This document shows, piece by piece, positions 11,252 through 48,607 of a stretch of 64,000 nucleotides of DNA (positions are counted from its first letter, which is position 1; each line of letters opens with the position of its first letter). The notes below the pieces were generated by a model that worked only from the letters and a program-made list of their open reading frames with translations, was not told the origin of the DNA and made no database searches. A program made the translations under genes and the position numbers. Origin of the DNA: a virus (Duplodnaviria > Caudoviricetes). The stretch lies in IMG/VR virus record IMGVR_UViG_3300020577_009596, positions 37,557 through 101,556 of that record, one strand, 5' to 3'.

Positions 11252-11867
11252 GTTCGCTCCTCTTCTTAGCAGACTCACTGAGTTTTCGACGGTGCTCAGC
11301 CGAGCAAGCCTTACCTTTTCTAGGTGGATTTGTCACGTTCCTGACGGCAGCTCGCTCAGCAGACTTCTTACGACACAACTCGCTAGGCTTACGCCCTCTC
11401 AACGACTCACTGATCAACTTCTTCGTCTCTTCTGAGAGTGAGGATCCTCGGCGTATAGTATTACCCTTCATTCTCTCTGACCTACGGGATCTCTCGTCGT
11501 CCGACACTTTACGGTTCTTCGCTGCTTCGCTTATCCGACGTAGTCCGTCCTCAGTATGCATGCCTTTAAACCCGCCGACGCCGGTCGCCGTATTGAACTT
11601 CGGCTTGAGAAGAGCTATCAGCTCTCGCTCTCTAGTTTGAGCTTGTTCGTCAGTATCAAACGGTTCGATCGACCATTCGATCGCATACCTGTCAGTTTCG
11701 AGTATCGCAACGAGACCGGGCGGTCTACCAGACCATGATGACTTGCCTGTAGGACGACCGCGGTTCCCGCGACCCTTACCTACCCATAGAACGTCTTCAC
11801 CGATTCGCCACACGTACACGTACGGCTGCTTAGGGTCTTCGAGAGGTCTCTTTCTAGGCGTCGGCAT
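11223..11867 (-). CDS. GIY-YIG-like homing endonuclease with NUMOD3 repeats
   Basis: YVYVW...WVGKG...R, E..LI...PKFN; HTEDG, SEETKKLISES and SAEHRRKLSES NUMOD3 repeats; AT-richer than flanks. Confidence 0.75.
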   Translation of the reverse strand: MPTPRKRPLEDPKQPYVYVWRIGEDVLWVGKGRGNRGRPTGKSSWSGRPPGLVAILETDRYAIEWSIEPFDTDEQAQTRERELIALLKPKFNTATGVGGFKGMHTEDGLRRISEAAKNRKVSDDERSRRSERMKGNTIRRGSSLSEETKKLISESLRGRKPSELCRKKSAERAAVRNVTNPPRKGKACSAEHRRKLSESAKKRSERASQVPKHQ

Positions 11868-11921: not shown

Positions 11922-14021
11922 TTATAGCTTGAGTCTCCGGTGCTCGTCTCGGTCCCAGCTCGTCGGGCAGTACCCGACCGACACACGCAGCGGGACCCCG
12001 ACGTCCTCGCCGCTCCGCTCCATGAGACGCTGGAGGCGGCGGGCCTTGGGAAGGTTCCGACGACCGCCCGCGGGCATCTGGAAGACGATCTCGTCGTGGA
12101 CCTGGAGCGCGATCGTCGCGTCGAACCCGTCCCGACGCCACTCGCTCAGCTGCTCCTCGCAGCGGATCATGGCCTTGCTCGTACACCACATCGCGGTGGA
12201 CTGGACGTGGTAGTTCAGGGGGAGCGTAGGGCTTATCCTACCCCACTCCGACCGCGAGCACATCACGGGGTAGCCCCTGGCGGACCCGATCGACCGGTCG
12301 GGGATCGTCTCGACGTACCCGTGCCGGTTGGCGAACGAGACCCACCGGTCCATCAGGGCGAACAGCTTGGTCAGTCGTCCGCGGATCAGGCCGTACGCTC
12401 CCGGCTTGTGGGCGGTGGTGTCGAACTTCTTCTCCATGCAGCCGTAAATCAGGGCGAACCCGGCGTTCTTACACCACTTGTACCAGGTCGACTCGTACCG
12501 TCGCTTGAACTCCCCGCGCTGGTCGGCCAGCGGCCAGAACAGGTCGGGATACATCGCGCTCGCGTTGAGCAGGTGGTACGAGCCGAAGTACGGCGGGTCG
12601 TCGGGCCGCTCGAACAGCTCGATCATCGCCTCCTCCTCCGACTCGTAGCCGGGGATCCGGAGCTCGATGTTCTCGTAGTCCATCGGCCACCACTCGTATC
12701 CCGGCGGCGGCCCGAACCCGTAGCGGAGGTTGAACCCCTCCTTCTTGCTGATGTTCTGCTCGTTCGGGTTCGAGCTGCTGAACCGCAGCGTACCCGTCCC
12801 GGTCGCGTTCAGGTTTGGATTGAGACGACAGGTATCCCCGTCGTTGAGAGGAACCCAGAACCGCCGGTACCCTTCCATGTACTGGACGGCCGTGTCCCGG
12901 CTCCGCTTGTCTCCTATTGCCTTTACGAAGTCGAGCTGCGGTCCTTCAGTCAGAGTCTCGACATAGGTCTGCATAGCCTCCTTGTTCAGGCTCGGCGACC
13001 CGCTGTCGGTCCTCGCCGCGATCGGGAGGGCGAGGTACTGCCGACCCTTCCCGAGCGTACCGGGGACCTTCTTCCCCCGCTCGTCCCGCAGCGAGTCGCC
13101 GAAGCAGAAGTGGAGGAGACTGTCGTTGTTGCCGGACTTCGGGAGGTCGAGGTCGTACCCGAGCGAGGCCGCGATCTCCCGGCAGCGGTCACCCAGGTCG
13201 GCCCCCTCCCGCGAGTACCGGACGACCATCTCCTCGAGACGGCTCCGGCTCAGCGTGACGCCCCGCCGCTCCATCCCGAACACGACCGGTAGCAGCCTCC
13301 GCCGCTCCTGATAGATCTCCCAGAGGCCCCGCTCCCTCAGCCTCCGCTCCATGACCGGCCAGAGCATGACCGTCGACTCGGAGTCCTCGTTCGCGTACTG
13401 GGCCGTCACCGTCCGGTACGGGTGGTCCATCGGCAGCTTGTGGCGGTTCGCGTAGGCACGGGGCAGCCAGGTGTCCAGCTTCCACGGGCTCTCGTCCTCG
13501 CCGCCCTTCGCCCGCTTGGCCTTGTTCGCCTTGCAGGAGGGCATGTCGGCCCGGCCCTCCTTGGCGAGAGCCCAGGTCGGGTGCTCCCGGCGGACCCTCC
13601 CCCGGACCTCGACGACGACGTCCCGCATCCGCTTCTCGGACGGCTCTATGTCGATCCCGAGATAAAACAGGACCATATCGGTCAAATTGTGAGGTTGATT
13701 ACTAGCTAACAGATGTCCAGCTAGTAAGGTGTCCTCTACCTTCTCCCAATATGTGTCTATGTTAACCAGATCCCACAACCCTATCGAGTCGAGAGCGTGA
13801 GTATCGAAGCCGATGTTTTGACCTACGATTCGTTCTTGCTTTGTCAGCAAATCAGCAATCTTGACTAGGTCTTCTTGAGGGATATTCGGGGTTCGGGTGA
13901 TCGGATTTACCGGCCAATCCCAAAACACAGGGTCTTTACCGTACTCACATGTCGTCACGAGGAACGGCCTCGCCCCATGCCTCCAGTCAGACCCCGTAGT
14001 TTCACAGTCCAAAGCCATCAT
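11922..14021 (-). CDS. polA: family A DNA polymerase with 3'-5' exonuclease domain
   Basis: ExoI LDCETTG, ExoII GQNIGFD, TLRFSSSNPNEQNI, motif A DYENIELR, motif B KNAGFALIYG, motif C QVHDEI. Confidence 0.95.
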   Translation of the reverse strand: MMALDCETTGSDWRHGARPFLVTTCEYGKDPVFWDWPVNPITRTPNIPQEDLVKIADLLTKQERIVGQNIGFDTHALDSIGLWDLVNIDTYWEKVEDTLLAGHLLASNQPHNLTDMVLFYLGIDIEPSEKRMRDVVVEVRGRVRREHPTWALAKEGRADMPSCKANKAKRAKGGEDESPWKLDTWLPRAYANRHKLPMDHPYRTVTAQYANEDSESTVMLWPVMERRLRERGLWEIYQERRRLLPVVFGMERRGVTLSRSRLEEMVVRYSREGADLGDRCREIAASLGYDLDLPKSGNNDSLLHFCFGDSLRDERGKKVPGTLGKGRQYLALPIAARTDSGSPSLNKEAMQTYVETLTEGPQLDFVKAIGDKRSRDTAVQYMEGYRRFWVPLNDGDTCRLNPNLNATGTGTLRFSSSNPNEQNISKKEGFNLRYGFGPPPGYEWWPMDYENIELRIPGYESEEEAMIELFERPDDPPYFGSYHLLNASAMYPDLFWPLADQRGEFKRRYESTWYKWCKNAGFALIYGCMEKKFDTTAHKPGAYGLIRGRLTKLFALMDRWVSFANRHGYVETIPDRSIGSARGYPVMCSRSEWGRISPTLPLNYHVQSTAMWCTSKAMIRCEEQLSEWRRDGFDATIALQVHDEIVFQMPAGGRRNLPKARRLQRLMERSGEDVGVPLRVSVGYCPTSWDRDEHRRLKL

Positions 14022-14560
14022 AGAAGATTCCTCCAAGTCCTTTTCTTGACAGCGTCTGCTAAAGCATGTTCAGAGACTTTGGGCTTAGTTACGGCGTAGA
14101 TACGCGAAATAGACCATCCTTTCGAGTACAAGAATCTAGCTATTTTGACTTGTTCCTCGGTCATCCTCGCGTTGCCGTTCGCCGCCCCAGGACAAGGAGT
14201 ACCCGTACCGGCTCTACTTTGACGTCCCTTTGACACCATGTCGTCAGAATTATCTTGGACCGTACCTTGGAATAAGTGATCCGGTCTCACGCAGCGGGGG
14301 GTGTCGCATTTATGAAGAACGAACAGCCCCGACTTGATGACATTCCCGGTTAGTTCGTAGGCTATCCTATGTGCTTTCTTTTCCCTGAAATGTCCGTAGC
14401 CGTTGACGGTGGCTGCGATCCACACCCAGCACTTACCGTGAACCGGATGGATTGGACCGTTCTCCTTATCTACTCTCATCCAGAACAGTCGCTCAACGTC
14501 AGTACCGCGATTGTTGGAGTGCTTCGAGAACTCTCCACGAACGTAGACACCCTTCGGCAT
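14018..14560 (-). CDS. HNH homing endonuclease
   Basis: CWVW...AHRIAY...VLHKCDTPRCVRPDHLFQGTVQDNSDD; C-terminal HTH. Confidence 0.9.
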   Translation of the reverse strand: MPKGVYVRGEFSKHSNNRGTDVERLFWMRVDKENGPIHPVHGKCWVWIAATVNGYGHFREKKAHRIAYELTGNVIKSGLFVLHKCDTPRCVRPDHLFQGTVQDNSDDMVSKGRQSRAGTGTPCPGAANGNARMTEEQVKIARFLYSKGWSISRIYAVTKPKVSEHALADAVKKRTWRNLL

Positions 14561-16190: not shown

Positions 16191-16436
16191 TCAGCTCGGG
16201 GTGAGGTTGACGATCTTGCGGATCTCGTAGCCGTACTCCCTCATCTCCTCCTCGTCGTACAGCCCGACGGCCGTCGGCGAGTAGTCTCCGTCCTTCTTGA
16301 GCACCGCCTCGGTCGCCTCGACCCGACCCACCGCCTTGCCAACGGCAAGGCCGTTGCGGTCCGCGTTGAGGACGACCGTCGCCTCCGGGGGGAGCGTCCG
16401 GAGACGCTCGATCAGCTCGATGACGGTCACGGTCAC
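16191..16436 (-). CDS. hypothetical protein (TVxELIExL family)
   Basis: GTG start overlaps the stop of the displaced ATPase 3' end; N-terminus similar to 17939..18319. Confidence 0.6.
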   Translation of the reverse strand: MTVTVIELIERLRTLPPEATVVLNADRNGLAVGKAVGRVEATEAVLKKDGDYSPTAVGLYDEEEMREYGYEIRKIVNLTPS

Positions 16437-16528
16437 TCCCCGTACACGAGGCCCTTGATCTTGTCGTACGACGGGTCCTCGACGTACTCCGGCAGCTCGC
16501 TCCCCTTGGGGATCCGGAACTTCGTCAG
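16433..16528 (-). pseudogene. displaced original 3' end (31 codons) of the Sak4-like ATPase gene
   Basis: [31 protein letters not shown] in high-GC codons, versus the live end LTKFRLPKGIELPEYLEDPSYEKVMNLVTG*. Confidence 0.85.
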
Positions 16529-17067
16529 TCCTTGACATGCTTCCACTGCTTCCTCTTACCAATATTGGCAACTTGAACTCGAGATATCCCGAACTTCTCA
16601 GCTAGCTTCTCAGCGGTTCCCGGTTTGTTAGGAGCCTTTCCAACTCTGAAGTGCTTACGAATGTACCTGACATCGTCTTCCGTAAGCCTAGCCAGATTGT
16701 GTTCAATTCCCTTCTTACCGCGAGATCCGTAGTTGAATCTTCCTTTCTTGATACAGTCGTGAATATTGTCTCGGTAGGTCCCTAGAAATAAATGCTTGGG
16801 ATTAACGCAGGCCGGATTATCACAGGTATGACATACGAGCAGCTTCCTGCTTCGGCTCCGGTCTTCCAGCTCTGGTCGAGTTCCGTAATGAAGTATCCAG
16901 CTGTAGACCGGAGCGTAATAGACCCTTTTGTTAACCGAAATGTATCCTCTTTTGTTGGTGGCTTCGGTCGGCTTCCACCACCAACAACCTTTGGTTTTCC
17001 TCACTCGAGCCCAGAATCGAACTTCTGGAGGAACTGTCTTGTCGTGGTCCTTGAAAGTAATCTTCAT
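16525..17067 (-). CDS. HNH homing endonuclease
   Basis: CWWW...[27 protein letters not shown]; C-terminal HTH ending WKHV; AT-rich. Confidence 0.9.
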
Positions 17068-17208
17068 CCCTAGCCTCCTTTTAAGACGCTACGATGAAGT
17101 TTACTATAAACTTCGTCACCCAGTTACGAGATTCATTACCTTTTCGTATGAAGGGTCTTCGAGATACTCAGGTAACTCGATCCCTTTTGGAAGCCTGAAT
17201 TTCGTCAG
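16529..17208 (-). mobile_element. HNH cassette carrying a recoded replacement 3' end of its target gene
   Basis: bounded by direct repeat TTCGTCAG (16521-16528 and 17201-17208); removal restores the original gene. Confidence 0.75.
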
Positions 17209-17985
17209 GAAGGTGTCGTGCGGGGCGGTCCGGAGACAGTACACCACGCCGGGCACCCGCTCCTGCGACCGCATCTCCTTACCCCCGATCGTCCGGACCC
17301 GCTCCTCCGTCCGACCCTTCTTGAACATCTGGACCACGAAGTCGCACGCCGGGGCGAGCCACCCCGCGACGGACGGGCTCAGTGCCGCGCCGACCGTCGG
17401 CCGGAGCAGGTCCGGGTCGCCGCCGTCCTCCCGGCCTCCGAACGTCCGCTGCTGGGCGACGATCACGACGTTCGCGTCGAGGTTGAGGAGGGCGCGGAAC
17501 AGGGTCTTGAGCTGCAACGCCTGCTGGCCGTACTGCTGCTGGCTCGCCATCCCCCAGCCCTTCTGGGCCGGGATCTCGTCGAGTCCGAGGATCTCCTTCA
17601 GGGCGTCGTCGGCCAGCCCGCTGGCGTGGTCGAGCACGACCGTCTGGAACTTGCCCGTCTGCCGGACGTGCTCGCACAGCTCCTTGACCTCGTTCGTCTG
17701 CCGGAGGACGACCTTCGTGATCTTCCCCCGCTCGGAGTGGGGGACCGACTGGAGCTCGCCGGGACGCATGCTCCCGCTGCTCACGATCCACAGCACTGGG
17801 CCGGGGAACGTCGAGGCGAACACGGTCTTGCCGCTTCCGCTCTCGCCGTACACCAGCATCTTCATCGGGCCGACCGAGTCCTCGACGGGCTCGAGACGGC
17901 TGAGCACCGGGCCGTCCATCGACGGTCGCGGGCGGGTCTCAGTCTTGGTCACGACCGGGGCCGTGGCCCTCTTCAGCGGGGGCAT
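17116..17985 (-). CDS. Sak4-like/AAA_24 ATPase (recombination/annealing protein)
   Basis: Walker A YGESGSGKT, Walker B TVVLD, VVIVAQ; next to an exonuclease gene. Confidence 0.8.
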   Translation of the reverse strand: MPPLKRATAPVVTKTETRPRPSMDGPVLSRLEPVEDSVGPMKMLVYGESGSGKTVFASTFPGPVLWIVSSGSMRPGELQSVPHSERGKITKVVLRQTNEVKELCEHVRQTGKFQTVVLDHASGLADDALKEILGLDEIPAQKGWGMASQQQYGQQALQLKTLFRALLNLDANVVIVAQQRTFGGREDGGDPDLLRPTVGAALSPSVAGWLAPACDFVVQMFKKGRTEERVRTIGGKEMRSQERVPGVVYCLRTAPHDTFLTKFRLPKGIELPEYLEDPSYEKVMNLVTG

Positions 17986-18333: not shown

Positions 18334-18540
18334 TTAGGGTTGCTTCGGCTTGGGTGGAATCAGTCCGTCCTCGGACAGCTTCTTGTGGAGCCAGTAGTAC
18401 AGGCCGACCAGCTCGTCCTCTCCGAGGATCATCTCGAGGTGGTCGTCCGAGTCGTACAGGGTCGCGTCGGCGAACCCGCCGCCCTCGGCCTGAGACGTGA
18501 ACGACCCTCTCAGGTCGCCTCCGATCACCTCGTAGGTCAC
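18334..18540 (-). CDS. hypothetical protein
   Basis: GTG start coupled to the exonuclease stop. Confidence 0.5.
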   Translation of the reverse strand: MTYEVIGGDLRGSFTSQAEGGGFADATLYDSDDHLEMILGEDELVGLYYWLHKKLSEDGLIPPKPKQP

Positions 18541-19829
18541 GACTTCAGCTCCCCGAACAGCTCGGCCGACCGGACCAGGCCCGCGGTCGAGCCGTTGTCG
18601 ACATACTCGTCCATGTCGGAGGCCCCGTACTCGTCGATGGTGTTCGCCGCACCGAACGGGTGCCGCCAATGTAGGCGGTTGTCGTGAAGGTCCCACGGCG
18701 AGCAGTCTCGGACTAGACACGCCTTGATCATGTCGTACCAGTCGCACATCTGCTCGAGGATCGGGTCGAGGCACTCGCGGCGGAACCGCTCGACGTCCCC
18801 CGGCCGGACCTCCGCCCGCCATCGGCGGAAGAAGTAGTTCTCGTCCTCGCGGACCTCCCACTCGGGGCCGGTCGCGTTGCGGATCACCTCGGCGAGGCGG
18901 GCCTGGAACTCGGCGTCGGTCTCCGGCGGCTTGGCCCCGACCCGGCAGGCCCCCTCGCACTTCGGGCAGACCGTCTCGACCTTCGTCCGCTTGTCGGTGA
19001 ACCGGCCGGTCGCGTCGCACTTGGAGCACTTCGCCCCCTGCGTGCCCTTCCCCTGCGTGATGCTGCCCTTGCCGCCGCTGAGCGGACGCCGGACGACGTT
19101 GTAGCGGACGCCTTTGATGTTTCCTCCGCCAGCGAGGATATGAGGCTCAAGTATCTCTCTCGCAGCTACCCACTCTGGGGACGGGTCGGACTCTCCTCCG
19201 CAACAGCTGAGAGCGACAAGATACATCATCGTCTGCAGGTCCCACGTCAGGTTCCGCTGGATCTCGACCTCGTCGACGTCCCCCTTCGTCTTGGTCTCGA
19301 ACAGATAGACTCCCGCCTCTCGGCCGGTCCCGACTAGGTCGACCGCGTCGAACTTGCCTCGCAGCCGGACGACGCGACCGGACGGCAGCCGGTACGGGAC
19401 GTCGAACGGGTACTCCTGTAGGAGCGGCGTCCGCTCGACGACCTCGGGGTGCTCCCGCCACCACTCGACGTAGATCGGGAACTGGGTCTTGCAGACGCCG
19501 TACCAGTGAGTGATCTCGGGCGACTGGAACGGATACTTCTTGATCAGGTCGCGGCAGAAGTCCAGCAGCTTGGGCTGCCAGTCCCTGCCCGCGGCGAGGG
19601 CCTCCTCACAAGTATGCCACATATCTCCGTACGACATACGGAAGTGGAACTTGTCGTGAGGTTTCCACCCTTCTATGTACTTGACTCGAAATCTCTCTCG
19701 ACAAGAAAGCCACGATTTTATGGCTGATTGAGTTACTCCTGAGTTAGGACCTTCCCCACAAGGGCCTCCCCACAGAGGGCGTTTCTCCTTAGGCTTGACC
19801 TTTGCCAGTATCTCTCTCAGCTTGCTCAT
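18537..19829 (-). CDS. PD-(D/E)XK (RecB/Cas4-like) exonuclease with zinc-finger insertion
   Basis: TQSAIKSWLSCRERF, GDMWH, LRGKFDAV, FETKT, LQTMMY; inserted CSKCDATG...CPKCEGA. Confidence 0.85.
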   Translation of the reverse strand: MSKLREILAKVKPKEKRPLWGGPCGEGPNSGVTQSAIKSWLSCRERFRVKYIEGWKPHDKFHFRMSYGDMWHTCEEALAAGRDWQPKLLDFCRDLIKKYPFQSPEITHWYGVCKTQFPIYVEWWREHPEVVERTPLLQEYPFDVPYRLPSGRVVRLRGKFDAVDLVGTGREAGVYLFETKTKGDVDEVEIQRNLTWDLQTMMYLVALSCCGGESDPSPEWVAAREILEPHILAGGGNIKGVRYNVVRRPLSGGKGSITQGKGTQGAKCSKCDATGRFTDKRTKVETVCPKCEGACRVGAKPPETDAEFQARLAEVIRNATGPEWEVREDENYFFRRWRAEVRPGDVERFRRECLDPILEQMCDWYDMIKACLVRDCSPWDLHDNRLHWRHPFGAANTIDEYGASDMDEYVDNGSTAGLVRSAELFGELKS

Positions 19830-20487
19830 TCTGCTTCCTCAGAAATTTAAGTCTTGCTTCTCTCATTTTGTTACGAGATGCTTCTGATCTTTTGCCGCAT
19901 GCGTTCTTGTTACCTTTCGACTTCTCCGCTAGTATCGCCTTAGTCTGCTCAGAATGAGACCTACCCGTCAAGGCAATACTCAGATTTCTCTTGAAAGTAT
20001 CGGTGTAGCCAATAGCTTGTCTCGCTGCTCTGGCTCTTTGTAACGCTTCAGCTTGTCTTACGCTCAGCTTCCCTTTCCTTATCGCTGATAGCCTTGCTAC
20101 GAGTTCTGGAGGTTGCTTTCTGCCTCTGAGTTTTTCTGAAACTGTCTTACAGAACTCTTCTGTAGGTTTTCTCCCTAAAGCACTTCCTGCCGTAGGGCAG
20201 ATATTATAACCTTTAACCGTTGCTTCCGTTTTGTCTATCCAGAACTGCTCACGAGAAATACAACTCGAAGGAGAACAGTATTCTAGGACAGAGAACTCAA
20301 ATACCGGACCATATTTGTTCCACGCAGCCTGAAGATGTCTGTTATGATGGTGTCCTCCTCTAAGGGTTTGAAAGTGAGACCTTTTCCGGTGCTTGAGAGA
20401 CTTAGCGGCCGACCCGATATAGAATTTACCGTTCAGAACATTTCTGATGATGTAGACGCCGGTATTGAAATGCTTAAACGGTGGCAC
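19789..20487 (-). CDS. GIY-YIG homing endonuclease with NUMOD3-like repeats
   Basis: GVYIIRN...FYIGSA...R...HNRHLQAAWNKYG...REQFWID...GYN; GTG start (MPPFKHF) after GGAG. Confidence 0.92.
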   Translation of the reverse strand: MPPFKHFNTGVYIIRNVLNGKFYIGSAAKSLKHRKRSHFQTLRGGHHHNRHLQAAWNKYGPVFEFSVLEYCSPSSCISREQFWIDKTEATVKGYNICPTAGSALGRKPTEEFCKTVSEKLRGRKQPPELVARLSAIRKGKLSVRQAEALQRARAARQAIGYTDTFKRNLSIALTGRSHSEQTKAILAEKSKGNKNACGKRSEASRNKMREARLKFLRKQNEQAERDTGKGQA

Positions 20488-20520
20488 CGAGGTCACTCCG
20501 CTAGTGACTCCGCGAGTAAG

Positions 20521-24520: not shown

Positions 24521-24524
24521 AGAG

Positions 24525-24617
24525 GAATCTTGAACAAAATCTCGGGACCGGCTTTACTTCCCCGGATTATAGGTTATACTCTTAGTACCTGACCGAGACC
24601 CGAACCGGAGACCTGAG
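24525..24617 (+). promoter_or_regulatory. early promoter cassette, copy 1
   Basis: TCTTGAACAAAA...TTTACT-N16-TATACT CTTA...CCGGAG RBS. Confidence 0.8.
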
Positions 24618-25518: not shown

Positions 25519-25613
25519 GATTCTTGAACAAAACCTTCAGGACCGGCTTTACTTCTCCCGATTAAGGGTTATACTCTTAATACCCTGACCGACAACCCCA
25601 AACGGAGACAGCC
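25519..25613 (+). promoter_or_regulatory. early promoter cassette, copy 2
   Basis: TCTTGAACAAAA...TTTACTTCTCCCGATTAAGGGTTATACTCTTA. Confidence 0.8.
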
Positions 25614-25952: not shown

Positions 25953-26230
25953 AGGATCCCGCCTATATGTCCTCGGCCGAGATCAACCGCGAGCTGGACC
26001 GCCTTCGGGTCCAGTCGTCAGCCTTCTGCGAAGAGATGATCGCTGCCGGTCGCGGGTACGAGAAGTACACGGACTGGAAGGATAAGACCGACGAGCTGTC
26101 CCGCCGCGGCCGAGCCGTCTACGACCGGACGTCCGCCCTCCAGGTCGAGATTCACGTCCGGTACGGAGACCGCGCTCCGAATCCGCTTCCGACCGGGCGA
26201 AAGCACGGACCTCGTAAGGCAGAATCTTGA
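25949..26230 (+). CDS. hypothetical early protein
   Basis: ATGA translational coupling. Confidence 0.65.
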   Translation: MKDPAYMSSAEINRELDRLRVQSSAFCEEMIAAGRGYEKYTDWKDKTDELSRRGRAVYDRTSALQVEIHVRYGDRAPNPLPTGRKHGPRKAES

Positions 26231-26301
26231 ACAAAACCTACCCGGCTGCTTTACTTCTCCCGATTAAGGGTTATACTCTTAATACCCTAACGGAGCCGAC
26301 C
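26222..26301 (+). promoter_or_regulatory. early promoter cassette, copy 3
   Basis: near-identical to copy 2. Confidence 0.8.
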
Positions 26302-26739: not shown

Positions 26740-26797
26740 CCCGCTTTACTTTCGCGTATTAAGGGTTATACTCTTAGTACCCCTACCGGAGCCGACC
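26740..26797 (+). promoter_or_regulatory. early promoter cassette, copy 4
   Basis: TTTACTTTCGCGTATTAAGGGTTATACTCTTA. Confidence 0.75.
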
Positions 26798-41250: not shown

Positions 41251-42684
41251 TCAGGTCGCTCCCATGAGCAGGAGACGAGACCGGCCTCCTCCGGCCGCCG
41301 TCACCGTCAACGTCGTCCCCGCGACATACCCGCTCCACCCGCCCGCGTTTTGGGCGCGTACCCGCGTTGCGATGGTGCCGGGGCCGCCGAGTTGCGTCCC
41401 GGTCTTCGCCGGTGTGCCGCCTGCGGACGTATCGATGACGGAGTACGCCCCCCCGTCCACGCTCACCGAAGTCTCGTAGCTTGTGGGGCTACCCGTCCAA
41501 GTGCCCGGAGCAAAGGTGAACGTGTCGCTCACGGTGCCGCTTGATGGCGTGCAGGACGGGGCGACGGAGTTGGTTGGGGCTGGGTTGTCGTATGCGACCA
41601 TCAAAAACGCCGAGCCCATCTTCGTCCGATTTGCGCTCGTAGCAAATTGCTCGACAAGACCGACTTCGACACCATCAATCCCGCTGGCAGTCCACGCCAC
41701 TCCTGTATTCGGGTCCGTCTCCATCATTCGCGATGAATATGCAACAGCAGTGGATGAAGACGCGGCGGCCGAGTCGCTATTGGTCGATCCTGAACGAACA
41801 CGAACAAGTACCGACCCGTTCAATGAGCCGTTTCTTGTAAAGATGATAAACGGCGATACTGCCAAGATCGTGCCGCCGATGTACTTGGTTGACGCGGGTT
41901 GAAGTGCCTCAGTCTCGGCGTTTCCAATGACATTTGGCGAAACCAAGTAACTTGTCGTGAAAGACACATCGGGAGGAACTTGCCCTACGATTTGATAGTG
42001 ACTGCCTGAACCAGCACCGACTGTGAAAGTTTGGTACGTTCCGTCTGCGTCTGGAATCAGCCTAGCAACCTGAACGGCAGGGACGTAATCGGAATCGCTC
42101 ACAATGCAATCGTCGAAATAAAAATCGACGGAATTGCCGTTTCGGTTTGTGGACTTCCCAAGCCGGATGCAATTGGTGGCACTGACGGTAAGAGTCGCAG
42201 TTGTGCTCCCGTCCACGGCATCGTTTACTTTCCACTCGACTGCTGCTCCCGCACCAGTTCCACACTTGATCTGGATTTTGTACCACGTCGCCAAAGACAA
42301 TACTGTCGTTCCTGTGGCAATCAAAGTAGTGCCGCTATAAGCAGAAATCACGCCGGTCGAGTCAATGCGCAACTCCATCTTTGCGACTGCGCCGCCAGTC
42401 GCGCGGATAGCAGTGAACTCTTCATTTCCACTGGCCGGAAGAGTTAAAACGTAGAAGTAAAACGTGAAATATGAAATCGCTCCAAGATCGACCGTAGTCG
42501 CTAAAACAGCCCCGTTGGAGCCAAAAACGGTGTAGTATCCCGTTCCTGTTGTTGTGGGGTTGGATCGGACTGCATAAGTGGACCACGCCCCTCGCGTCGG
42601 CGTCGTCACCAGCGATGCCGTCCCTGTAAGAATGGTGGATGTCGTCACTCCACCTTCAAATCCATCAAACGCCTTGATCGCCAT
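41251..42684 (-). CDS. tail fibre/adhesin-like protein (lectin-like + Ig-like)
   Basis: Thr/Ser/Gly-rich; WYKIQI...YFDD lectin-like domain; APTNSVAP Ig-like start; lower GC than flanks. Confidence 0.65.
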   Translation of the reverse strand: MAIKAFDGFEGGVTTSTILTGTASLVTTPTRGAWSTYAVRSNPTTTGTGYYTVFGSNGAVLATTVDLGAISYFTFYFYVLTLPASGNEEFTAIRATGGAVAKMELRIDSTGVISAYSGTTLIATGTTVLSLATWYKIQIKCGTGAGAAVEWKVNDAVDGSTTATLTVSATNCIRLGKSTNRNGNSVDFYFDDCIVSDSDYVPAVQVARLIPDADGTYQTFTVGAGSGSHYQIVGQVPPDVSFTTSYLVSPNVIGNAETEALQPASTKYIGGTILAVSPFIIFTRNGSLNGSVLVRVRSGSTNSDSAAASSSTAVAYSSRMMETDPNTGVAWTASGIDGVEVGLVEQFATSANRTKMGSAFLMVAYDNPAPTNSVAPSCTPSSGTVSDTFTFAPGTWTGSPTSYETSVSVDGGAYSVIDTSAGGTPAKTGTQLGGPGTIATRVRAQNAGGWSGYVAGTTLTVTAAGGGRSRLLLMGAT

Positions 42685-45630: not shown

Positions 45631-46061
45631 GAGATTGTCAAGATACTTCCGCCGGTCGTGGAGCCGGATGGTTTGATCACAGCCGAGTCTCCGCTGTTGA
45701 GCGTGATGCTGGAGCCGTAGTCCCAATACCCGATCAACTCCTTGTTCGTCGCCGTGTCGTCGTACAGGACGACGTAGCGGAACGCGCCCATCGCCCCGCC
45801 GCTGGCCGTGAACGTTACGGCGTTACCGATCAACGTGGCCGTCCCGCCGGATTGAGAGTAGGCGGTACCGGCGACGGTGGCTCCTCCCGACGAGTAGCCA
45901 TTCGCTGCGGAGATCTGCGTGATGTCCGAGAGTTGGTTCGCTGTTGCCGCGTTCGGTGCCGTGTTTGACAACGCCAGCTTCAGCGTGTCGGCGTTCAAGT
46001 TGAACACCTTGCGCCCAAGGTTCTGGACGAACGACTGGAACTTGGAGAACGACACAGCCAT
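45627..46061 (-). CDS. conserved phage tail fibre-associated structural protein
   Basis: DTLKLALSN...NGYSSGG...FTASGG...FRYVVLY...LIGYWDYG. Confidence 0.7.
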   Translation of the reverse strand: MAVSFSKFQSFVQNLGRKVFNLNADTLKLALSNTAPNAATANQLSDITQISAANGYSSGGATVAGTAYSQSGGTATLIGNAVTFTASGGAMGAFRYVVLYDDTATNKELIGYWDYGSSITLNSGDSAVIKPSGSTTGGSILTIS

Positions 46062-46082
46062 GGTTCGGACCTCGGTTCGGAC

Positions 46083-46397
46083 TCATCTGAGGGCGTAGCG
46101 GATCGTCCCCTTGACGTTGACCGCCGCGCTGAGGCCGATCTTCAGGGCCTCACCGGGGGCGCACATCAGGTCGCTGTCGTTGCTGACCGGCATGACGATC
46201 CCCCCACCCGTCGTCGCGTCCATCGCGTTGGTCGGGGAGATCGTGGTCGTGTTGGACTTCAGGGTCACGTCCACCTGCCCCGCCGAGGTCAGGTCGTAAC
46301 CGAGGATGACGATGCGGCGGTCCACTCCCATCGCCTGGGACGGCGCGGCGACGAGGGTGGCACCGTCGGTCGAGGTGTCGACTACTGCTACAGGCAT
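46083..46397 (-). CDS. virion structural protein
   Basis: beta-rich, GEALKIGLSAAV. Confidence 0.6.
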   Translation of the reverse strand: MPVAVVDTSTDGATLVAAPSQAMGVDRRIVILGYDLTSAGQVDVTLKSNTTTISPTNAMDATTGGGIVMPVSNDSDLMCAPGEALKIGLSAAVNVKGTIRYALR

Positions 46398-46431
46398 GTG
46401 AGGAGCCTCCGTAGGGTCATTCTACCGTCTC

Positions 46432-46527
46432 TCAGGCCCCCGTGATCAGCGTGTCGGCGATCGTCGGGACGCTCGCGTAGGGCAGGATCAGCCCCGGCGT
46501 CTGGAACAGGCGGCTCACGAGGGTCTG
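46432..46527 (-). pseudogene. displaced original 3' end (31 codons) of gene 47195..48607
   Basis: QTLVSRLFQTPGLILPYASVPTIADTLITGA* versus live end QCLISRLFQTPGLILPYDASPTISDSLITTP*. Confidence 0.85.
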
Positions 46528-46528
46528 G

Positions 46529-47291
46529 CGTATACTAGATCGAGCACGGTAGAAGTACCACCTCCTACCGTGCTCTGAACGCAACAACCTTTTACGGAGG
46601 CTGTCATATCTACGGATAATTCTACGTCCTTCTCCTACGACCCTGAGACTGATGTTTGTTACCGAACCCTCGCATTCATGGGATTTCCCGATCACCGCGT
46701 CGGAGACGACGGAAGTTCGTGGACTCGTCTCGAACTGTACACGCCTTCTGGTCAGGGACGTGTTGGAGTTCGATATAGAACCGGTACTGTGTGGAAAGAA
46801 TTGTCGCGGCGGAAGGACGAGTATGCTGGAATTTGCTTCTACAAAGACGGCAAAAGACGACAAATCGGCCTTCATGTTTTGATACTGACGGCGTTCGAAG
46901 GACCTCCGCCATTCTTCGGAGCCGAGGCTCGGCATTTTCCTGACAGAAATCCAAGCAATAACCGTTTGATCAACCTTCGGTGGGGTTCTGCAAAGGATAA
47001 CGCCAAGGACCGCGATGAACACGGAACTACTGCTCGGGGAGAACGCAACGGATTTGCTAAGTTGACCGAAACCAAGGTTCGAGCTATAAGAGCCCGATAC
47101 AAAGTTCTTCGTAACTTCTCGGCTGTCGGCAGGGAGTTTAATCTTCATTACACCACCGTAGTCGGGATTGTTAGAAAACAATCTTGGAAACATGTTACGG
47201 AGTAGTGATAAGCGAGTCTGAGATTGTAGGACTTGCGTCGTACGGAAGAATGAGTCCTGGGGTCTGAAACAACCTACTTATAAGACATTGG
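46529..47291. mobile_element. antisense HNH cassette carrying a recoded replacement 3' end of its target gene
   Basis: AT-rich block between the duplicated C-terminal coding sequences; 3-bp TGG microhomology at the junctions. Confidence 0.75.
46678..47205 (+). CDS. NUMOD4-type HNH homing endonuclease (may start at ATA 46606)
   Basis: HRVGDDGS.W, LHVLILTAFEG, RHFPDRNPSNNRLINLRWGSAKDN, WKHV end. Confidence 0.88.
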   Translation: MGFPDHRVGDDGSSWTRLELYTPSGQGRVGVRYRTGTVWKELSRRKDEYAGICFYKDGKRRQIGLHVLILTAFEGPPPFFGAEARHFPDRNPSNNRLINLRWGSAKDNAKDRDEHGTTARGERNGFAKLTETKVRAIRARYKVLRNFSAVGREFNLHYTTVVGIVRKQSWKHVTE

Positions 47292-48607
47292 AACGTGGCA
47301 CCGTACGTCGCCCCGCCGCGGTCGTTCGTGAACGTCAGCGTGAACCCGTCCGGGTCTGGTCGGGCCTCGAACGGGGTCGCCGGGTTCGAGAAGACCGCGA
47401 TCGAGGGGCCGCCGGGGTAGAGGCTGGTGGGCTGGCAGACGCAGACGTCGTCCACGAGCAGGTTCGCCCCCGCCAGGGCCGTCGTGACCTTGATCTTGAG
47501 CCGGACGATGCCGTTCGAGGGGAGCACGACCGGCGTCTGGAACGCGAACGACCGGGCGACCCAGCTCGTCGACAGGCCGGTCAGGGCGAGGGTCTGGCTC
47601 TGGTTGACCCCGGCCTGGTTCTGCAGGACCGTCCCCGTCGAGTCGACGAGGCTCACGGTCAGGACCCCGCCGCTGATCACGCCCGTCGCCTTGGTCCAGA
47701 GGTTGACGAGGTACGGCGTGAACGCGGTGATCGTCGCGACCGTCCCGGCCGTCGCCCCCGTCGCGTCCGACGAGTCGAACTGCTGGGTCAGGGCGTTGAG
47801 CGTCGCCCCCGCGTTGAACTGGACCGAGTAGGTGCCGCCGAGGGCCGTGCCCGACCGCTCGATCGAGGTGCCCCACGTCCCGGTCTCGAGGTACCAGTAG
47901 GACGGGCCGCTGAGGGCGACCGACCAGTCCTCGAAGTCGCCGTTCGTCGTCATGTTCGCGGTCTGCGAGCCGTCGACCGACGCGCTGATCGCGACCCCCG
48001 AGGCGGACTGGCCGCTGCCCTGCGGGAAGTCGAAGTCCCACGTCCCGACCGGCGTCCCCGTCCCGTAGGAGGAGACGTTCGGGGCACCGTTCCACTGCCA
48101 CGGCTCGGACCCCGCGGTCGCGCTGCCGGTGTAGGAGTCCGCCGTGATCAGGAGCGTGCTGACCTCGGCGACCGTGTTCTGGAAGATGAGGCCGTCGTAC
48201 CGGACCAGCGTGACGACGACCGTCCCCCCGCCGACGTTGCCCGAGTCCGGGGTCACGGTCGAGCCGATCACGCACTCCTTGACCGTCGCCGCCTGGGCGA
48301 TCATCGCCTGGTTCAGGTAGAACAGGGCGGACGACAGCGAGGCCCCGTAGGCGGGGTCCTGGGCGACCACGAGGCCCTGGAGGATGTTCCCGACCGCCTG
48401 CGTCCAGACGCCCATCCCCGTCGTCCCCTGCCGGAGCATGGCGTCGTAGGACTGGGCGAGCTGGGCGACCCACGCCGGGTTGACCCACGCCTCGCCGGAC
48501 AGCTGCGTGAACGGCGTCCCCTGCGCGGCCTGGGCCGTGTCGATGAGGTATGCGTTCCGCCCCGCCCGTCCGAGCGAGGTGAACACCTGAGTGAGGTTGA
48601 GGGGCAC
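47195..48607 (-). CDS. virion structural protein with carbohydrate-binding-like domain
   Basis: NMTTNGDFEDW...LLVDDV CBM-like domain; tail module. Confidence 0.6.
   Translation of the reverse strand: MPLNLTQVFTSLGRAGRNAYLIDTAQAAQGTPFTQLSGEAWVNPAWVAQLAQSYDAMLRQGTTGMGVWTQAVGNILQGLVVAQDPAYGASLSSALFYLNQAMIAQAATVKECVIGSTVTPDSGNVGGGTVVVTLVRYDGLIFQNTVAEVSTLLITADSYTGSATAGSEPWQWNGAPNVSSYGTGTPVGTWDFDFPQGSGQSASGVAISASVDGSQTANMTTNGDFEDWSVALSGPSYWYLETGTWGTSIERSGTALGGTYSVQFNAGATLNALTQQFDSSDATGATAGTVATITAFTPYLVNLWTKATGVISGGVLTVSLVDSTGTVLQNQAGVNQSQTLALTGLSTSWVARSFAFQTPVVLPSNGIVRLKIKVTTALAGANLLVDDVCVCQPTSLYPGGPSIAVFSNPATPFEARPDPDGFTLTFTNDRGGATYGATFQCLISRLFQTPGLILPYDASPTISDSLITTP

Follow-up and report, generated by a model that had tools for sequence, protein, structure and literature searches.

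How can an endonuclease gene sit inside a coding sequence of a phage and leave the encoded protein whole? By the usual view, a homing endonuclease gains access to coding sequence only by way of an intron or an intein, and otherwise lies between genes. The locus described here fits neither arrangement. The window, which is the whole stretch of DNA that was analysed (64,000 nt), comprises bases 37557-101556 of an IMG/VR viral contig of 101,556 bp with a GC content of 65.7%. Inside its gene 47195..48607 (minus strand) lies a low-GC segment of 763 bp (46528-47290, cassette 2), which contains an I-HmuI-like HNH_3 gene together with the host gene's last 31 codons in a recoded version. This layout, proposed in an earlier note, was confirmed: two 96-nt copies of the gene end, with GC contents of 0.45 and 0.70, enclose the HNH gene (Table 1). 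The low-GC copy (the new end) now forms the C-terminus of the host gene, and the GC-rich copy (the orphan) retains the native spacing to the next operon gene. The new end and the orphan agree in 22 of the 29 amino acids of their ungapped core, in 23 of 32 codons with the stop included, and in 56 of 96 nt. Tail to tail, the HNH gene shares 11 nt (47195-47205) with the host gene.

Table 1. Features of cassettes 1 and 2, with positions counted from the first base of the window
Feature	Position	Strand	Description
Next operon gene	46083..46397	-	GGAGG site; gene starts 34 nt past the orphan stop
Orphaned native 3' end	46432..46527	-	31 codons + TGA; GC 0.70, GC3 0.97
Stop-free host-strand frame	46432..47193	-	253 codons; ATG 1 nt after the new TAA (TAAcATG)
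Spacer and HNH 5' region	46528..46677	+	Hairpin and sigma-70-like site
HNH_3 gene	46678..47205	+	175 aa; antisense to host operon; GC 0.50, GC3 0.47
Replacement 3' end, cassette-borne	47195..47290	-	31 codons + TAA; GC 0.45, GC3 0.41
Host gene, native body	47291..48607	-	Codons 1-439; GC3 0.98
Cassette 1	16433..17208	-	End of Sak4-like ATPase gene (PHROG 124), HNH gene, orphan
Cassette-1 orphan	16433-16528	-	96 nt
Cassette-1 HNH gene, sense-oriented	16525..17067	-	Self-comparison with flanking duplicates
Cassette-1 new end	17116-17208	-	93 nt = 30 codons + stop

The borders of cassette 2 are sharp. The junction position is ambiguous by 2 nt, and the foreign segment starts where the orphan starts, again within 2 nt, as is expected if both mark one repaired break. 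No long direct repeats were found at the borders, where microhomology amounts to 2-3 nt at most. The spacer contains a hairpin with a 14-bp stem (46542-46575, fold z = -2.9) and a predicted sigma-70-like site (46591-46620). A perfect 10-nt complement also exists between the spacer (46593-46602) and the ribosome-binding region of the next gene (46404-46413); it was not relied on, since about 0.5 such pairs are expected by chance in this region.

When the whole 101.6-kb contig was compared with itself in six frames, only two strong flanking protein-level duplicates with a contrast in GC content emerged, those of cassette 2 (E 4e-8) and of cassette 1 (E 6e-12). An ungapped, stop-penalised comparison was then run across each endonuclease gene of the contig and gave scores of 113 for cassette 2 and 122 for cassette 1, against a background of no more than 61. 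It replaced a gapped comparison with stops read as X, which was drowned by low-complexity off-frame matches in the GC-rich DNA.

The host gene encodes a protein of 470 amino acids with 67 metagenomic homologues that are up to 79% identical, and its last 31 residues form a motif conserved across these homologues. Neither Pfam nor PHROG gave a match, so that its function can only be inferred. The AlphaFold model (21 homologues, pLDDT 77) consists of N-terminal helices and a beta-sandwich, and in Foldseek the latter resembles CBM16/CBM4 modules (E 4e-10) as well as chains of phage baseplates and tailspikes. Judged from this predicted fold, the product is likely a conserved virion-type protein with a receptor-binding role in the tail or baseplate. 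The host gene had no match among INPHARED phages at either the DNA or the protein level, nor in a single-protein scan of viral contigs. Profile scans of metagenome and viral-contig collections recovered only seven distant loci, and the duplicated end occurs in none of the seven.

I-HmuI is an intron-encoded enzyme and acts as a nickase, not as a double-strand cutter. The product of 46678..47205 matches Pfam HNH_3 with 26.8 bits (gathering cut-off 24.8), PHROG 59 (HNH endonuclease) at 3.5e-25, and I-HmuI itself (PDB 1U3E) at E 1.5e-3 with the HNH core aligned; the two proteins have 174 and 175 amino acids, I-HmuI being named first. The core, H-F-P-D-R-N ... N-L-x-W, is typical of the HNH subfamily. 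H86, N108 and D111 are invariant among 13 aligned subfamily sequences, so that the catalytic His and the metal-binding Asn are kept, and the position equivalent to Asp74 of I-HmuI is occupied by Arg here and by Arg or Cys across the subfamily. No obvious Shine-Dalgarno site precedes the gene, and the RNA junction that precedes other endonuclease genes in the genome is not evident before it. Among 5.8 billion proteins the nearest relative is 42% identical, and cassette 2 itself was found nowhere else in the databases, in which the sample of relatives is small. With so distant a nearest relative and no second copy of the cassette, cassette 2 is no more than a putatively mobile unit.

Which of the two gene ends is native can be read from the relatives of the host gene. 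In the three closest (L003, L006 and L007; 79-75% identical) the gene is uninterrupted, the HNH gene is absent, and the next gene lies 42-84 nt downstream. The orphan matches the 3' ends of these three genes at 78-83 of 96 nt, as against 56-68 of 96 nt for the new end, of which the protein sequence nevertheless agrees at 24-29 of 32 codons. A second copy of the C-terminal motif is absent from all 13 relatives' loci. The orphan is closest to the 3' end of L003, with 83 of 96 nt and 31 of 32 codons identical in protein, and of the 12 codons that differ, 11 are synonymous; it must therefore have diverged while it was still coding, which implies that the insertion is recent. The new end is spelled differently. 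Compared with the L006 allele, it has 29 of 32 codons identical in protein, and 20 of the 29 same-residue codons (~69%) are respelled, whereas natural alleles respell one another at 5-11 codons. The GC3 of the new end is 0.41, against 0.97 in the orphan and 0.98 in the gene body, and it makes use of codons that are almost missing from the neighbouring late genes. Five of the residues in which it differs from the orphan are variants of other natural alleles (P0003/P0004 type). On alignment and composition, the new end is of foreign origin and came in together with the low-GC HNH gene, and the GC-rich orphan, which the uninterrupted genes of the relatives match, is the native end, recently displaced.

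The same design occurs a second time in the window. Cassette 1 interrupts the end of a Sak4-like ATPase gene, with its HNH gene in the sense orientation; the duplicated stretches found by the six-frame self-comparison are 16439-16528 and 17119-17208, and its junction is ambiguous by 8 nt, owing to the direct repeat CTGACGAA. The HNH proteins of the two cassettes are 27% identical over 97 amino acids of the C-terminal half, and both end in W-K-H-V. Both orphans measure 96 nt, as the earlier note had stated, but the new end of cassette 1 measures 93 nt. When the cassette-free targets of the two cassettes are aligned on the junction, 11 of 14 bases are common in the same register, with the consensus CACSTTC/CWGAC (the slash marks the junction; P ~1.7e-4 for one register). 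As the junctions share these bases, the two insertions in the window may to some extent be related in their target preference. The junction motif CACSTTCCWGAC occurs six times in the window when one mismatch is allowed, against 1.5 occurrences expected from shuffles, the sites including 11334-11345, 17204-17215 and 47535-47546; codon bias (Phe-Gln/Leu-Thr) may be the cause of this excess. Being somewhat over-represented in the window, the shared motif is treated as a lead only, and it is not by itself the whole recognition site, since the cassette-1 allele retains it.

Recurrence beyond this contig was examined at 123 viral-contig loci, 43 with relatives of the cassette-2 HNH protein and 80 with relatives of the cassette-1 HNH protein. 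Six further end-replacement cassettes were found, each inspected by eye, two of which replace a 3' end and four a 5' end. Both 3' cases have the HNH gene in the sense orientation and replace ~44 codons of an epimerase-like gene (L069) and ~26-38 codons (L068). The 5' cases comprise ~21 codons in L032, whose HNH gene is joined in frame to the native start; a stretch of 25 similar codons in L048, where the orphan has 47 codons; ~14 codons of a DUF5131 gene in L116; and ~36 codons in L103, where an extra ORF lies between the orphan and the HNH gene. The cassette-borne copy is the lower-GC copy in most cases, and DNA identity between the copies ranges from 53 to 67%. The proposal that end replacement is a recurring mechanism in this HNH family, to be sought by scanning for HNH genes with duplicated gene ends and tabulating the lengths, is thus supported by six cases with replaced segments of ~14-47 codons at either end of a gene. 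With lengths varying to this extent, 31 codons is not a family constant, and the suspicion already voiced that the equal lengths in the window could be coincidence holds. Duplicates abutting the gene on both sides were found at 4 of 119 HNH sites and at none of 178 size-matched control genes. Wide flanks do not discriminate, as random control sites score about as often (8/174), and the control matches are tail-fibre repeats, paralogues and low-complexity matches, not gene ends. A flanking duplicate was found neither in the four closest HNH relatives for which context was available (L009-L012) nor in four cultured phages (Heva, S-CBS4, Rexella and Samy), so that the analysis yielded no cultured example.

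Taken as a whole, cassette 2 is probably an end-replacement homing element, that is, an HNH gene linked to a recoded version of the last 31 codons of its own target. The HNH enzyme would nick or cut cassette-free alleles at or beside the junction, which reads ...ACGTTC/CAGACC... in the relatives, and the break would be repaired by copying the cassette from a cassette-bearing donor, with the gene body upstream and the native 3' end downstream serving as homology arms. After insertion the gene would end in the cassette's own copy, so that the protein would be whole without splicing, and the native end would be pushed downstream as the orphan. The target sequence would be destroyed by the insertion and the allele rendered resistant, while the low DNA identity between the two copies (~58%) would limit loss of the element through recombination between them. 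From this arrangement we infer that the enzyme cleaves at the junction, that the recoded allele resists it and that the cassette is still mobile.

The alternative that survives best, although we consider it unlikely, is a one-off scar. In another phage, a free-standing HNH gene would have followed a homologue of the host gene and been captured from there once, through a single crossover between homologous sequences in the gene and a single join at microhomology; the orphan would be debris, and the enzyme may not target this site any more or may never have done so. Such a capture accords with the border microhomology of only 2-3 nt and with the lack of a second copy of cassette 2 in the databases, and each cassette of this kind must have originated in this way at least once. 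It does not account well for a foreign segment that starts exactly at the start of the orphan, nor for an HNH frame and an orphan that are both intact, the orphan with all but one of its 12 codon differences from L003 synonymous. The 11-nt overlap of the HNH gene with the new end is as in a co-evolved unit, and the same design is found in eight cases overall, which likewise argues for a homing element rather than a single accident.

An origin of the new end in place is very improbable. The host gene's own 3' end would have been duplicated during repair and one copy would have drifted to low GC, which would suit two copies that are colinear and of equal length. Drift of this kind would have had to arrive at five residues that are variants of other natural alleles and at a GC3 that resembles the HNH gene (0.47) and not the genome, and to respell some 69% of the same-residue codons while the orphan stayed essentially unchanged. 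A chimera assembled from two strain variants is less probable still: the contig does come from a metagenome assembly, but the copies, at 58% DNA identity, are too distant for mis-joining, an intact foreign gene lies between them, and the contig has two examples of the design, which six unrelated contigs show as well. That the HNH gene belongs to a self-splicing intron or an intein, as the intron-encoded I-HmuI might suggest, with the orphan as a real exon, has a negligible probability, given that the gene lies on the opposite strand, that Rfam gives no match across 46000-47700 with E values of up to 1 allowed, and that the host frame closes at a TAA after a full-length, family-typical C-terminus.

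Cassette 2 has one further peculiarity on the host strand. Opposite the HNH gene runs a stop-free frame of 253 codons, codon-aligned antisense across that gene and the 150-nt spacer, which ends in frame at the native stop of the orphan; it has no match in Pfam or PHROG. The HNH gene contains not a single TTA, CTA or TCA codon (P 0.008, given the base composition of the gene). By comparison, 3, 5, 8 and 8 such codons occur in the four endonuclease genes of the genome that are sense-oriented; the base rate of such absence in the family is ~0.14 (4 of 29 relatives with GC3 of at most 0.6). The 50-codon spacer is likewise open (P ~0.05), and it shares the reading frame of the orphan (chance 1/3). 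At independent loci, a stop-free aligned antisense frame is present in 8 of 19 antisense-oriented HNH genes and in 3 of 28 of those in the sense orientation (one-sided Fisher P 0.016). The difference points the same way in each of three GC3 strata; the samples are small and the gene calls heuristic. All eight open frames reach to within -118 to +86 nt of the start of the next host gene, and the orientation of the flanking genes is backed by homology at six of the eight loci. It is possible, though we hold this post hoc idea only tentatively, that antisense-inserted HNH genes are selected to be 'translationally transparent', with a stop-free host-strand frame from the upstream stop to near the next start. 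Ribosomes would then cover the antisense insert, and the downstream late genes would escape polarity. Antisense shadow ORFs are frequent in GC-rich DNA in any case. If the stop-free frame is selected, it would amount to a constraint on how selfish genes sit inside operons. Two of the scanned contigs (L064:1546-2220 and L140:2264-3076) carry an antisense HNH gene directly downstream of the major head protein gene, and in both the frame on the host strand stays open all the way to the next gene.

Several other parts of the window also depart from the prevailing composition. The first ~150 codons of a PolA-like gene (11922..14036, minus strand; 13587-14036) have a GC3 of 0.50-0.68, with most of the rest above 0.9, and the first 50-100 codons of gene 18537..19829 (minus strand; 19530-19829) have a GC3 of 0.46-0.78. 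These low-GC3 starts adjoin endonuclease genes, an HNH gene (14018..14560) and a GIY-YIG-like gene (19789..20496), respectively. No orphan copies of either gene start were found, and they look like 5'-end replacements or co-conversion tracts of which the native piece has been lost. A low-GC island (~0.5) at 41600-42500 within gene 41251..42684 (minus strand) has no endonuclease gene nearby and could be a mosaic stretch of what resembles a tail-fibre gene. A low-GC motif (~0.4-0.5) of ~45-65 nt is present on the plus strand in at least four copies (24523-24589, 25531-25593, 26220-26295 and 26740-26787), up to 94-100% identical, and may be a promoter or regulatory element. Finally, the last 77 nt of the contig (window 63924-64000) are repeated exactly at contig bases 805-881, a stretch that the window does not cover; this could be terminal redundancy or a paralogous repeat clipped by the contig end.

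End replacement offers an explanation for low-GC, oddly spelled gene termini and for short orphan ORFs in phage genomes. It also bears on annotation, in which orphan ends and antisense shadow ORFs are miscalled as genes, and each junction provides a direct prediction of the cleavage site of an uncharacterised nuclease. Among phage systems, I-HmuI of Bacillus phage SPO1 (PDB 1U3E) belongs to the same protein family as the cassette-2 enzyme and is of the same size, but its gene lies in a group I intron that splices out, whereas cassette 2 brings a spare gene end and no intron. In the intronless homing of the T4 seg and mob genes, a free-standing endonuclease gene lies beside a conserved target and flanking donor sequence is co-converted, as here. 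The flank of the recipient is replaced in those systems and is not retained as a duplicate. A literature search found no paper on end replacement, or on a retained orphan end, in phages.

Closer parallels are found in fungi. The mobile ORFs (mORFs) of fungal mitochondria, described in Allomyces atp6 and in Glomus atp6, atp9, cox2 and nad3, make gene hybrids in which a foreign C-terminus is followed by an endonuclease ORF and then by the native C-terminus; the two copies share 64-81% DNA identity and are close in protein sequence, and the native copy resembles that of relatives (PMC3630166). An N-terminal version of this layout has been reported in Tremella (PMC8393795). The order of new end, nuclease ORF and native end is the same as in cassette 2, but the mORFs encode LAGLIDADG or GIY-YIG enzymes, reside in organelle genomes, and are often fused in frame to the host gene. 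The WHO elements of Torulaspora and Lachancea yeasts consist of an endonuclease gene and a replacement 3' end of the target that confers resistance, with the old 3' end kept downstream as a fragment that serves as a homology arm, and no splicing is involved; their allele-specific cleavage at the junction has been demonstrated experimentally (PMC7282813, Coughlan et al. 2020). WHO elements and cassette 2 have in common the nuclease gene, the new 3' end and the displaced old end. They differ in setting and enzyme, the former being nuclear elements of eukaryotic meiotic diploids with an intein-derived LAGLIDADG/zinc-finger nuclease, the latter a phage element with an I-HmuI-like HNH nuclease. They differ also in scale, as WHO elements replace ~415 nt of FBA1 and build tandem clusters, whereas cassette 2 replaces 96 nt, and in orientation, as only in cassette 2 is the nuclease gene antisense and overlapping the new stop. 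The mechanism is therefore one known from yeasts and fungal mitochondria, and what is new is its occurrence in phage, with an HNH nuclease and in an antisense orientation with an overlapping stop. Beside introns and inteins, carrying a recoded spare end constitutes a third route into coding sequence, and phage I-HmuI-like HNH genes appear to have used it repeatedly.
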